This document shows positions 199 through 62,530 of a stretch of DNA of 64,000 bases, in pieces. The notes beneath the pieces were generated by a model. The model did no database searches. It was given only the letters and a program-made list of their open reading frames with translations, and was not told where the DNA came from. Both the position numbers and the translations under genes were made by a program. This stretch comes from Bilabrum cf. latius (lineage: Eukaryota), in the NCBI GenBank assembly GCA_965178125.1, contig OZ237748.1, positions 310,001 through 374,000 of the forward strand, read 5' to 3'. Each line of letters opens with the position of its first letter. The first letter of the stretch is position 1.

Positions 199-1125
199 AT
201 GGTAGAGATTCAAGAACCAGATATCTTTTATATTAACTCATAGGATACTATAACATCTATTGGTACTAATAGACCAGTATCAATACATGAACAGCGTCAA
301 GGTAATATCTTGACAAATTCACAAAACTACTTATTATCACTTGACCGATGGACTCTTAAATGTCGTATTCCTTTATTTGTAGCAAGTAAAGAAGTAAAGA
401 ATAGCGATAATTAGTCAATTTATAAGATGTCGTTTGTGAAGAAGAGTGATGGAACTACTTACACTCGTAATATTGTCTTAACCAAGTCGTTATATTATAG
501 TCTTAAGACCTTATCTAATGAATTTAATAATACTCTTAGTGATTTATGTGGAGATGCTAGTATTCCAACTGATAGTATAGTATTTGAATATCACGGTAAG
601 ACTAAAACTTTTAGTTTCACCCGTTTAGCGGCTTTTACAAGTGCGTGGACTTTAAGTTTTAACTTTCCTTTATTCTCTATATTTGAGACATTTGAATATG
701 ATGATGAAGGTAAAGACATTAAAAGTGATACTTATATAAATCTTTTAGATGGATACAATGAATAGAGTGCTTCTACCTTAGATTAGTTTCCTACTATGGA
801 GTATATTCAAATTATTAGTCCATCTCTTCCAATACTTCCAGAATTTACGCCATCATATAAAAGTACATCTAGTACAGAGATACAAAGTGAAAATATCTTA
901 AGTGATTTCAAGATAGACAATACAACAGGAACGAGTTTTATTAAAATAAACTTTAGTAGTGGAGGAAATCATAGATGGCAATAGTTCTATAGATCAGCAT
1001 TTAATAGTTATAGTATAGTACCGTATTTTAGAGATACTTTTGGAAACTTATACGAAATACCCTTTACTTTTGGACAAGGACTTAATATAAAAGCTCTATT
1101 TAAAAGTAAAAAGTTAATAACTTAA
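199..1125 (+). CDS. Virophage-type minor capsid protein (penton), 308 aa with TAG read as sense
   Basis: Single frame ATG199 to TAA1123 interrupted only by TAG (241, 412, 763, 784, 982); it joins track ORFs 427 and 796. N-terminal EQRQGNIL..NYLLSLDRWTLKCRIPLF and C-terminal YFRDTFGNLYEIPFTFGQGLNIKALFK resemble virophage pentons, and it lies directly upstream of the MCP. Confidence 0.8.
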
Positions 1126-1167
1126 AGTAAAAAATAAATAAATATCTTTAGTCTTAATATATTTATA

Positions 1168-59064: not shown

Positions 59065-59538
59065 TCCCAGGGATTCAGAGCCCCACTGGTGAGGCAACGG
59101 ACGTGAGTGTTGCCCAAAGCTTGCTGCTGGGATAGGCGGCTCGATGTGTTTAGTTGGATTTGAAGTTGATCTTGGCCTGGGGCTTGTCTTGGAATGGCAG
59201 CTCGGGCCACTGCTTGCTTGCTGTGACTGACTGTATACGGATGAATCAAATGGATCAAGTTGACTGCATCATTGGCACATCGCCCAATGTTTGTTGTCAA
59301 ACCAAACATGTGCAGACAACACCCTTCGAATATGATGGCTACCATACTAATATAGTAATCAAACTTAGTGACACAGTAAAAACGACAGTCTCATCTACAT
59401 GGACTGCGGCAAAGGCCCAGGCGTGATCCAGGCGTCTCGCCGGCCCTGCGCGGCGCCAAAATAAGTTCCGCTCACACGTGGTCGGCAGCTGCTACCGCCT
59501 CTTGGAAGGCACTAGTCCGATTGTGATATCAGTTTGAG

Positions 59539-62530
59539 ATGTAAGAAAGTGTGTGTCTTTATATTAGTACCGATACAATTTGTTGAGGCTGACAGCGCTC
59601 CGTAGCAGCTGTTGTATCTATCCTATCTATCTATGGTGCGTTGAGATATCCTCGTGGATTCAATCCATATGAGTCTATTTGACATGATACATAGGATATC
59701 AAGGTAAATCATTGAAAATCACAGGGGAGACGCACTTCGAGCAGCAGCCAGATATGGCAAGGTGGATGACCTGAGGGCCTGCCTGGATTCAGGAACGGAC
59801 ATCGAATCCAAATATGGCGTGAGATTGAGTACTACTTGTCAAGCTGTTGGATAAGTTCTTGAACTGATGTTTATGTGAAGGGAATTATGTTTGCGTACAG
59901 GCTGTCACGGAGCTCACCATTGATCGGGTGACGAGCCACCTTTGGAGCGAAGCAGACCTGATTGATGTATGCCATGAATTCTTCCATGAGCCAGAGTGGC
60001 GGGCTATTCGTGAAAACGGATTTCCTTCAGTGCTACTGCTGCTTTGTATGCATGGCAGTGACATTCACCTATTGTTCTGGTTGGTCTCCGCGCCTGGTCA
60101 CTAGCGGATCCTCACCCCCCGTCACCAGGTTGCTCCCTTCCCTCGGGGTCTACCACCCACGGCTACCCACCAATGGTTACATATTTCTTCAGTGCATCGC
60201 AGTATGGTTGGACAGCTGCATATTTCGCTGCACGTTATGGCAAGACAGACTGCCTGAAGGTGCTCATCGAGAGGGGCGCGAACGTGAACGCTGCAAGCAA
60301 CGTGAGAGAGAAAGGGGCTGCCTGGCCAACAGGGGAAGGGGGGGTGAAGGCGGCACCTGGGATATTTGATTTGGCTTGAGAGATAATTATACTGTTTTTA
60401 CCCGTTCAAGTGGCTAGCATAGCATCTAGCTAGCTCCTCGTCTATCGAGCCGGGCCGGACCCCCGAGCTACTTGCAGGATGCGGATTCATCCGAATTGTG
60501 TCTGGAATTTCAAGGCAAATGCCTATTAATTGGTTGAATTTGTATACTTCCTTTTTTCAAGTTTGGTTGTCGATCGATGACAGCTCCCCGGTGGAGGACA
60601 GGACTGGCCTGTGTGACGAGTATCAGCTCGACCCTCATTGCCTGGCTTGCGCCACCGATGGGCGGAGTTCAATGAGTTTGCACTGATGAGTACATACATA
60701 GTATGACATAGATGTGATTAATTTGAGTCATTTGTCTTCCAGGAACTGCACAGCCGGCGAGGCTGCCGCTGCCCGTCCCCCCAGAGGGCCCCTCGGCTAT
60801 CTCAGCCCCCAGGCGGATTCAGAGGCCCGGGCCGGTCCCTGTCGTGATGCAATGGCTTGGTAGGAAGATTGGTGTATATTTGGGTGGGTTTTGATTTTAA
60901 TGATTTTGTCCCTCGAGCGGGAATCGATCCGGGGACTGCGCCCCTAGGGCCCAGAGCGACTCCCACCGGTCCGTGCCAAAGCCCCCAACACCCCCATCAC
61001 CCGCCCCATGCCCACCCAAACCCACCCCAAGCACACCCCCTGCTCCCCCCCCACCCCCTGTCTCCCATCCCCCCACCGCAGAGTGGCTGGACACCCGTTC
61101 ATTAGGCATCCGCGGTTGGGCACGATGATTGCCTTCGATTGCTGCTTGAAAATGGGGGGGACGCGAATGCGGTGGATAGGGTGAGAGAGAGAGACATATG
61201 TTGAGGGAAAAGTTGGTCTTGTGTGTGTGTATGCTCGTGTGTTGGATGGGTGTGTGTGTCTGTCCGGCTTGGATTGCGCGCTCCCGGGTCCGAGACCCGC
61301 TGGCAGGTCCCTTCGCGGTGCCCCCACTGCATTGATGGATTGGGGCTGGACAGTTGTGCACGTATCTCGGGCTGTAGGTATGGTATGGTATCATGTTTTG
61401 TACCCATCGGCGTGATTTCGGGGGCGCAGTCCTGCGATCGGATTCGACTCCGGATCCGAATGGTCGCATCGGATCGCCGATCGGGAGCTAGTGGTCGCTT
61501 TCAAATGGTTCGGAGAGCTTTATTCTTGTCAAAATGTGTATCATTTTCTGTATCTAGTCATCTTTTGCCGGATTGACCGGTTCCGGAAGGATGGAACTGC
61601 GCTTGCCGGGGCAAGCAATGGCTTCTGGTCGATGCTCCATTCGATTCTCAAGCGGAGAGCGTTTGGCTTAGTTCGCAGGTCTGACTGTTTTCATCTTAGT
61701 GTAAATTGTCCTTTTGTCATGTTGTTGGAGGCGGGGGTTCGTATTCTGCCGAGTTGATCCTCCTGCTTGGGTTGCTCGCTGCCGGACCGCTGCCGCACAA
61801 GGCCGAGCACATCGGTGGCAGATATGTTGGGTGGAGCTAAGCTCTGAAAGATTTGTCAGCCAGGTAATTGCCTCAGATATTTCAGGTTGGCTCATGTCCT
61901 TTCAGTACCCTCCGATTCAACCGCAGACTGGAGACACCCCCCTGCACAGGGCAGCGTACTGGGGTCGCACCGCCTGCGCCACGATCCTCATGGAGGCAGG
62001 GGCCTGCAGGGACATCAACAACAACGTGAGTTTGTTCAACTGCATTGCAATAGCTCCTGAGTTTCACATACCAAGCATGCTATCCTAGGTATCAACGGAC
62101 ACTCCCACGCACGAATCCATCCCCAAATCATTCCCCCCGCTACCTTGCCTCCTCACCTTTGTCCTTGTCTCCCCCTTCCTTGATCGAGCAGAATGGCAGG
62201 ACTCCCGTGGAGATGGCAGCTTAGTGCCGCTGCCTCGAAACCGCTGCCGCCATTCGGTCATTCATTCCATCTCGAGTCCGAAGGGCCATGTGCTGGAGGC
62301 GGGCAGTGGAGGCCAAGAGGGACGCATCAATGGTATTCAGGGCAGCGAGCACTGGCAGGCCCATGGAGCTTGAAAAGAGGCTGAGGCTGGGCAAGCTGGC
62401 TGGTGGGTTGGCGATCAAGGGAATAGCGATACATGGCAGTAGGAGCTCTATGCTGGTGCTTCCACTGGAGGCAGCCAGGCTGGGAGGGCACGACGAGTGC
62501 GTGAAGCTGCTGCAGGAGGCCTAGGCATGA
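59539..62530 (+). CDS. Ankyrin gene G7 (short tail)
   Basis: Exons 59725-59818, 60203-60301, 61082-61180, 61927-62025, 62192-62530; in-frame TAG in two exons. Confidence 0.8.

Follow-up and report, generated by a model that had tools for sequence, protein, structure and literature searches.

A virophage-like element and a GC-rich eukaryotic chromosome that probably share a genetic code reading UAG as glutamine

The DNA considered here, 64,000 nucleotides of contig OZ237748.1 (the window; assembly GCA_965178125.1, deposited as Bilabrum cf. latius), is a piece of a eukaryotic nuclear chromosome, GC-rich and marked by spliceosomal introns and a tandem array of ankyrin/coiled-coil/kinase paralogues. 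In this contig, that chromosome is joined to an AT-rich, virophage-like element; the window starts inside this viral element and covers only its right-hand ~9.6 kb. Base composition separates the two parts, with 30-35% guanine plus cytosine (GC) from position 1 to ~9568 and 51-70% in the remainder. Under the standard code, the AT-rich part yields only short open reading frames (ORFs). When TAG is read through, six ORFs occupy most of its first 7.7 kb. As argued below, virus and host are both probably written with UAG as glutamine (Gln) and with UAA and UGA as stops, the pattern of NCBI table 15. The six viral ORFs are the following.

199 to 1125, plus strand: homologue of the penton or minor capsid protein, 308 aa, five in-frame TAG, ending in TAA (ORF under TAG=Q, phmmer)
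1168 to 3054, plus strand: major capsid protein (MCP), 628 aa, five in-frame TAG, ending in TGA (Pfam, PDB)
3242 to 3664, plus strand: ORF without a family, 140 aa, four in-frame TAG, ending in TAA (ORF under TAG=Q)
4290 to 4640, plus strand: ORF without a family, 116 aa, two in-frame TAG, ending in TAA (ORF under TAG=Q)
4703 to 7501, minus strand: primase-polymerase/helicase replication protein, 932 aa, 11 in-frame TAG, ending in TAA (Pfam, PHROG)
7532 to 7744, minus strand: ORF of 70 aa, two in-frame TAG, ending in TAA (ORF under TAG=Q)

The affinities of the element are set by its capsid genes. The penton-like ORF lies directly upstream of the MCP gene, and its product matches PDB 6g41, 'Minor capsid protein' (E 4.3e-13, 52.2 bits), and 3j26_N, 'Minor virion protein' (E 3.1e-5), in phmmer searches. 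The MCP matches Pfam PF22031 MCP_V20_C (E 3.2e-7, 30.4 bits, cut-off 27) and, over residues 78-543, PDB 6g45, 'Putative major capsid protein' (E 1.9e-15, 59.8 bits). 6g45 and 6g41 are mavirus capsid proteins and 3j26 is from Sputnik, and on these matches we therefore call the element virophage-like. The replication protein matches Pfam Prim-Pol (E 8.7e-14) and PHROG replication and primase families, and the ORF at 3242-3664 has no PHROG match. By Pfam, PHROG and the ORF list, no gene for a packaging ATPase, a cysteine protease or an integrase lies in the right-hand ~9.6 kb covered. Close relatives of full length are present in protein collections, three for the MCP (at 99, 88 and 86% identity) and one for the helicase (at 87%). 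Searches for the DNA of related capsid genes gave no confirmed relative in viral contigs (protein and alignment queries) or in metagenome contigs.

Across their 2194 codons, the six viral ORFs contain 29 in-frame TAG and neither TAA nor TGA. These TAGs are spread over all of them (five each in the penton-like and MCP genes, 11 in the primase-helicase and eight in the three small ORFs), with at least two in each. TAA terminates five of the ORFs and TGA one, and none ends in TAG. Off frame, the same DNA holds 145 TAG, 220 TAA and 168 TGA, a density that predicts ~194 TAA plus TGA in frame where 0 are observed. Viral and host frames alike were delimited by TAA and TGA, so that the zero arises partly by construction and the informative figure is the length of the frames set against the off-frame density. 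Decay is ruled out for the viral genes, because it cannot yield stops of a single kind where TAA is the commonest stop triplet. Nor is TAA a sense codon in the virus: A-ending codons dominate (AAA 131, GAA 99, CAA 64), and under a code-6-like reading TAA should therefore exceed TAG. That TGA is a true stop is supported by the MCP, since the C-termini of three close relatives lie within 2 residues of its TGA. Of the three triplets, TAG alone serves the viral genes as a sense codon.

Codon usage gives this sense codon a place. When TAG is counted as Gln, the viral Gln codons are CAA 64, CAG 3 and TAG 29 (29 of 96), and the G-ending share is 33%, as compared to 24% for GAG and 37% for AAG. In this AT-rich virus, TAG has nearly displaced CAG as the G-ending Gln codon.

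The residue read at TAG was assessed on the helicase. A search of 1.84 billion representative proteins returned 948 matches at E<=0.001, of which matches 2-150 were aligned with the query (149 proteins at 26-38% identity, from clusters at <=50% identity); the 87% relative was excluded because it probably uses the same code as the query. Only four helicase positions have Gln in at least half of at least 75 homologues. Three of them are TAG (365, with Gln in 132/147; 445, 80/148; 590, 145/149), and the fourth, 589, is CAA. Summed over the 11 TAG columns, the log-odds are +5.27 for Gln, -6.28 for Lys, -10.14 for Arg, -14.4 for Leu, -14.55 for Glu and -24.19 for Tyr, so that Gln scores best with a lead of 11.5 log units; random sets of 11 non-Gln helicase sites reached the observed Gln score once in 5000. 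The remaining eight TAG columns vary and are for the most part polar, although the homologues have hydrophobic residues at 690 and 886. In a control, this scoring recovered the proper residue for 10 of 11 codons (CAA, GAA, GAG, AAA, AAG, TTA, TTG, AAT, GAT and TAT), the exception being CAG, which occurs only once and scored best as Glu. The homologues were judged from protein only, their own codes being unseen, and some may be recoded. Recoded homologues cannot account for the near-invariant Gln columns, however, because these extend over 149 clusters at <=50% identity. These columns show TAG to stand for Gln in the predicted viral helicase.

The capsid genes add to this evidence. The TAG at residue 208 of the penton-like protein faces a Gln of 6g41 within a conserved Q-x-A-S-T-L stretch. 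Four MCP TAGs fall within the 6g45 alignment and face Asp, Lys, Asn and Asp, which are polar and not diagnostic. In the virophage-like element, TAG is almost certainly read as Gln, with TAA and TGA as stops. A preliminary description of this DNA had claimed as much for UAG in the virus, from capsid and helicase frames with in-frame TAG and without TAA or TGA, and from viral genes that lack internal TAA and mostly end in it; the counts over the six ORFs, the helicase columns and the penton alignment bear it out.

The GC-rich part of the window is a tandem array of paralogues at 75-98% identity. Its unit consists of ~100-nt ankyrin exons and introns, followed by a long GC-rich exon that encodes a coiled coil with a 42-bp period and a protein kinase. 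Pkinase matches in the array have E of about 1e-9 to 1e-11, and a search for kinase homologues returned a single distant animal match. The frames and exons that bear on the code are listed here.

15020 to 17806, plus strand: frame A, last ankyrin exon, coiled coil and kinase, three TAG (Pkinase E 2.5e-10)
34803 to 37409, plus strand: frame B, coiled coil and kinase paralogue, seven TAG (Pkinase E 1.4e-9)
42686 to 44776, plus strand: frame C, kinase paralogue, two TAG (Pkinase E 7.3e-11)
51399 to 53999, plus strand: frame D, coiled coil and kinase paralogue, four TAG (Pkinase E 6.3e-9)
24019 to 25335, plus strand: frame E, C-terminal part of a paralogue, two TAG (codon counts, paralogue alignment)
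57760 to 59064, plus strand: frame F, C-terminal part of a paralogue, one TAG (codon counts, paralogue alignment)
19244 to 19345, plus strand: ankyrin exon with TAG at 19301, C-L-TAG-L-L (motif scan)
56350 to 56451, plus strand: ankyrin exon with TAG at 56392, opposite CAC (His) in eight paralogous exons (motif scan)
61079 to 61183, plus strand: ankyrin exon with TAG at 61103, T-P-V-H-TAG-A-S, where paralogues have ATG, GCG, GTG or TTG (motif scan)
25717 to 26100, minus strand: single-copy OTU cysteine-protease exon read through five TAG (Pfam OTU E 5.9e-8, 33.7 bits, cut-off 23.3)

The host frames repeat the viral pattern of stop triplets. Frames A-F, 4230 codons in all, contain 19 TAG, 0 TAA and 0 TGA in frame, and the 8460 off-frame positions contain 12 TAG, 5 TAA and 125 TGA. 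From the off-frame density ~62 TGA would be expected in frame, where there are none; TAG is enriched in frame and TGA is excluded. All six frames end at TGA or TAA run-outs, and TAG is a minority Gln codon within them (19/221). A scan for ankyrin motifs in all six frames, with any stop symbol allowed and 2 spurious minus-strand matches dropped, found 24 exons on the plus strand with 5 TAG, 0 TAA and 0 TGA. The TAG at 19301 recurs in the ankyrin exons at 30449 and 38986, and four other paralogues have AAG there. All 24 host in-frame stops tallied over kinase frames and ankyrin exons are TAG. The OTU domain rises above its Pfam cut-off only if the frame is read through five TAG, and the exon is followed by a TGA inside a GTGAGT-like 5' splice site. 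Weak alignments of this domain to viral OTU structures place Gln, Glu or Asp opposite a double TAG that precedes Tyr.

These frames also bear the marks of selection. Between copies B and D there are 323 mismatches in 2559 aligned bases and five indels (42, 3, 15, 24 and 6), all multiples of three. With TAG taken as Gln, the Nei-Gojobori ratio of nonsynonymous to synonymous substitution (dN/dS) is 0.42 for B-D, 0.30 for the kinase quarter of B-D (dS 0.81) and 0.30 for A-C. Indels and ratios show the predicted host frames to evolve under constraint on both frame and protein. Because the indels keep the frame, the dN/dS values are low in this manner and the OTU exon exceeds its cut-off through TAG, the host paralogues do not look like dead genes.

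Among the paralogues, the commonest partner of a host TAG is CAG, which faces it at six sites (35175, 51729, 24493, 17381/43910, 16784/43316 and 36306). In the coiled-coil repeats, GATGCCTAG occurs twice (35169, 51723) as against ten occurrences of GATGCCCAG. The codon after RGLL, in the C-terminal kinase lobe, is TAG in copies A and C (17381, 43910) and CAG in copies B and D (36849, 53439). The TAG at 16784 is common to A and C, with CAG in B and CGG in D, and the TAG at 24493 in frame E lies opposite CAG in two paralogues. Gln appears to be the best single reading of the host TAG, but host data alone would not settle it.

Contigs from sequencing runs bear on expression of these exons. Of ten listed runs, which carry four coded organism labels, nine contain part of 7000-16900; the material consists of contigs, none recorded as RNA, the RNA label of some is a guess, and uncovered parts were not used as evidence. 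Contigs of three runs, labelled RNA by such a guess, lack 13574-14827, a segment with GT..AG ends, and resume in a paralogue's next ankyrin exon at 14926-14928. One such contig joins an ankyrin exon reading Ala-Ala-Tyr-TAG-Gly-His to the next exon, which does no more than hint at the splicing of TAG-bearing exons into mRNA.

The virus connects the two lines of evidence. Virophages lack a translation apparatus, so the cell that reads the host genes has to read the viral ones too, and the paralogues swap TAG mostly with CAG; on both grounds, the host probably shares TAG as Gln with TAA and TGA as stops. Decoding of UAG would fall to a tRNA-Gln with anticodon CUA, which would be unable to pair with UAA, and eRF1 would no longer recognise UAG. 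The 64-kb window contains no tRNA genes by ARAGORN and no Rfam families.

For the host, the preliminary description fared less evenly. Its coordinates were all found as given, and the kinase frames and ankyrin exons do carry TAG without TAA or TGA. Its claim that the host shares the code is supported indirectly by the stop statistics, the indels, dN/dS, the OTU exon and the CAG partners, with Gln itself drawn from the virus and the paralogues. Its claim that TAG alternates with Gln codons in paralogues stands for the D-A-Q and RGLL-Q examples and falls for a third pair, GCCTAGGGATGA (at 57688, 42413, 42499 and 42585) and GCCCAAGGATGA (at 57774). This pair, GCC-TAG-GGA-TGA and GCC-CAA-GGA-TGA, was rejected as evidence because of its setting, an 86-bp tandem repeat with 4 copies at 42337-42679 and 2.2 copies at 57612-57799 that encodes half an ankyrin-like motif (GGHDDCVKLLQEA-TAG-G). 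With a period not divisible by 3 and a TGA in every one of its three frames, the repeat is of uncertain frame.

The array has further features of its own. The OTU exon sits between two ankyrin-kinase units, with a 198-aa ORF without a family just upstream (26144-26740, minus strand). The exon may belong to a host gene or to a mobile element. A 45-bp minisatellite (37366-37861, 11 copies; 53956-54150, 4.3 copies) comprises the last 14 codons of frames B and D with their TGA and GGTGAGG. Hexanucleotide microsatellites (TGCTGG, CAGGTG) in the C-terminal exons at 24309-24490, 58044-58153 and 58661-58748 encode long Gly-Ala runs and vary in copy number among paralogues. Two ORFs at 94% identity, 27685-28896 and 45871-47223, both on the minus strand, are S1-domain-like and hold 1 and 3 in-frame TAG, respectively. 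A tandem repeat of 27 codons lies in the second, and both ORFs could represent 5' exons from an Rrp5-like gene that was copied along with the array. Pfam searches of ten further GC-rich ORFs gave sub-threshold matches only (RRP5 S1, E 5e-4 to 8e-4; ferredoxin transit peptide, E 0.003).

Between the viral genes and the array lie three more features.

7745 to 9565, no strand: AT-rich non-coding end of the element (sequence; repeat families D1-D3; inverted pairs I2, I3, I8; TRF)
9566 to 9666, no strand: 101-nt palindrome exactly at the AT-rich/GC-rich boundary (inverted-repeat search)
9650 to 11686, minus strand: GC-rich ORF with an APE-like C-terminus (translation; cut at the boundary)

The non-coding viral end contains five copies of a ~103-nt unit at 8050-9368, each with an imperfect inverted repeat (CGCCCAGAATTGCG ... 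CGCAATTTCGGGCG, ~25 nt apart), and two tandem arrays found by TRF, one of 28 bp x 3.7 (8137-8239) and one of 29 bp x 3.2 (8718-8811). Units and arrays could be origin-, promoter- or terminal-repeat-like. The palindrome has outer arms of 19 nt (9566-9584 and 9648-9666) that are 100% complementary and an inner perfect palindrome of 34 nt (9604-9637). Contigs of two other runs match the GC-rich side as far as 9569, beyond which their sequence is still GC-rich but differs from that of the window, and a contig of run X1 diverges from the window at 9666.

The ORF beyond the palindrome is possibly a truncated long interspersed element (LINE). Its match to Exo_endo_phos (E 0.13, 12.5 bits) is below the cut-off of 24.5, no reverse transcriptase (RT) domain occurs in the 64-kb window, and no homologue of the ORF was found. 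The APE-like stretch (9650-10180, minus strand) has 0 TAG; one occurs in the 502 aa upstream (10180-11686), and the remaining three TAGs of the stop-to-stop frame are located in AT-rich run-on. The preliminary description had read in-frame TAG in the APE frame and had extended the code to a retrotransposon. Neither claim could be sustained on one TAG, a sub-threshold APE match and a window free of RT, and this ORF says nothing on the code.

A common code for virus and host has to be weighed against a number of observations that count against it. No host TAG was placed on a column conserved in external homologues. Besides CAG, the host TAG faces GAC (a repeat variant, A-M-TAG vs A-K-D), AAG (a single event that three ankyrin exons share), CAC (within the G-H of one ankyrin repeat), GAG/GAA and ATG/GCG/GTG/TTG, and in another strain's contig it faces the Tyr codon TAY; at three sites, the alignment was too poor to assign a partner. 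CAG to TAG is, moreover, the most frequent of nonsense transitions, and the host genes are young tandem paralogues, some of which could be decaying. The TGA that ends frames B and D recurs in the 45-bp minisatellite together with a splice-site-like motif, GTGAGG, and this apparent stop may therefore lie within an intron. On the viral side, the close relatives have Gln at 13/15 MCP TAG sites (else Asn, Glu), and the 87% helicase relative has Gln at 8/11 (else Asp, Glu, Lys). These proteins (P0009-P0012) were not counted as independent support, given that the Gln at TAG may come from the database's own translation, and their full length suggests that the database's gene caller does read TAG in this way. 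At the boundary, none of the contigs listed from other runs spans the palindrome 9566-9666, and this contig is the one on which integration rests. The summed contig depth of run X1 is 387-846 per bin over the viral part (1-9338) and 17-168 over 10006-20000, an excess that points to a high copy number or to free viral DNA in that sample.

Four other explanations draw on these observations. The virus alone might be recoded, as in phages that use code 15, with the TAGs of a standard-code host lying in pseudogenes or introns and a suppressor tRNA supplied by the virus or its helper giant virus. Phages with TAG as Gln in standard-code hosts are on record in two reports (PMC9523058; bioRxiv 10.1101/2021.08.26.457843), the residue is proven in viral genes only, the host genes are tandem paralogues with mixed TAG partners, and a viral tRNA may lie elsewhere, as the window covers only the right-hand part of the element. 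Recoding of the virus alone is nonetheless unlikely. It would leave unexplained why 24/24 host in-frame stops are TAG and none is TGA, which is ten times commoner off frame, why 5/5 indels between B and D keep the frame over 323 substitutions with dN/dS of 0.3-0.4 downstream of TAGs, why the RGLL TAG sits within the conserved C-terminal kinase lobe of two copies, and why the OTU domain is recovered only through TAGs. A slightly poorer account is that TAG is ambiguous, encoding Gln inside genes and stopping translation near their true ends by context-dependent termination, as in Condylostoma or karyorelict ciliates. It would suit a host in which no gene end is defined and TAG is a minority Gln codon. 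However, 0/6 viral ORFs end in TAG, and TAA and TGA are kept here as dedicated stops, whereas in known ambiguous codes all three codons are dual (PMC11687900).

A chimeric contig, in which the assembler joined the virophage of another recoded organism to an unrelated GC-rich genome at the palindrome, would account for the breaks of other runs' contigs at that boundary and for the depth excess in X1. It is very unlikely, since the GC-rich side displays the TAG-only pattern independently and both parts are present in the same runs; high depth fits a multi-copy or episomal element equally, and such an element is as possible as integration. Finally, the host might read TAG not as Gln but as another residue, Glu, Lys or Tyr for instance. 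The GAG/GAA, AAG, GAC and CAC partners and the Tyr codon of the other strain's contig speak for this, as do the OTU alignments, in which Glu/Asp lies opposite the double TAG as often as Gln. This is the least probable of the four, because CAG is the commonest partner and the same ribosomes and tRNAs read the virus, where the helicase columns favor Gln and disfavor Lys, Glu and Tyr. UAG as Gln in both virus and host, with UAA and UGA as stops, remains the probable reading.

A tentative extension of that reading, somewhat short of even odds, is that an unrecognised lineage of GC-rich, intron-rich eukaryotes, neither ciliate nor Iotanema, independently uncoupled UAG from UAA and that its mobilome, the virophage included, followed. 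Nuclear codes that split UAG from UAA are rare, and this case would be an independent data point in a very different genomic setting, one that bears on how eRF1 and a CUA-anticodon tRNA can separate the two codons. A virophage written in the variant code of its host would imply a long, exclusive association and predicts a helper giant virus that is recoded or at least code-tolerant. If the new lineage is real, the giant virus parasitised by this virophage would also be translated under an altered code, and the system would be the first virophage, and the first triad of virophage, giant virus and host, on a variant code. It would then offer a natural setting for testing code change as a barrier to viral host range. 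More practically, annotation under the standard code would shatter the TAG-containing genes of the assembly and mislabel the virophage genes as degraded.

Codes of this type have precedents. In PMC11687900, UAG alone is reassigned to Gln, the variant given there as NCBI table 15, in Iotanema spirale, Protocruzia tuzeti, Hartmannula sinica and Trochilia petrani, to Leu in a rhizarian and some ciliates and to Ser in Scotinosphaera. The literature search, which left supplements outside its scope, found no eukaryote with table 15 beyond Iotanema spirale and the three ciliates, and no virophage combined with a UAG sense codon or such an alternative code. Iotanema spirale, a member of Fornicata, resembles the present case in reassigning only UAG, to Gln, and in keeping UAA and UGA as stops (PMC5304391). 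Its decoder is argued to be a tRNA with a CUA anticodon, with a linked Thr-to-Gly replacement in the GTS motif of eRF1 (PMC5304391, PMC9161772). That organism has been characterised by its transcriptome, where UAG is rare and most stops are UAA (PMC5304391), whereas here TAG makes up 19/221 of host and 29/96 of viral Gln codons, in GC-rich DNA with ~1-kb introns. As its description is confined to the transcriptome, the present host may still belong to Iotanema. The ciliates Hartmannula sinica, Trochilia petrani and Protocruzia tuzeti have the same code, likewise derived from conserved Gln columns (PMC11687900). Unlike a ciliate macronucleus, the window combines 51-70% GC with long introns, a LINE-like element and kilobase tandem paralogues. 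High GC, long introns and tandem paralogues are atypical of ciliate macronuclei.

The viral side has parallels as well. The endogenous polinton-like viruses of Streblomastix strix are DNA viruses written in the variant code of their host, which has been read as a sign of long association; they take both TAA and TAG as Gln and belong to a different capsid group, whereas here TAG alone is reassigned and the capsid genes are virophage-like (PMC10120064). Code-15 bacteriophages, crAss-like and others, share viral TAG as Gln with TAA and TGA as stops (PMC9523058). These phages are recoded against a standard-code host, often with a suppressor tRNA of their own and maybe in late genes only. In contrast, the element described here has TAG in all six ORFs, no tRNA in the window and flanking cellular genes with the same pattern. 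Closest in gene content are the mavirus-type virophages and their endogenous copies, with which the element shares the set of MCP, penton and primase-helicase and the condition of an AT-rich element in a GC-rich genome. Mavirus integrates into its flagellate host. The present element differs from it in its low similarity to 6g45 and 6g41, with sparse conserved residues, and in the in-frame TAG found throughout its genes. The kind of code is already known; the lineage, and a first virophage written in that code, may be new.

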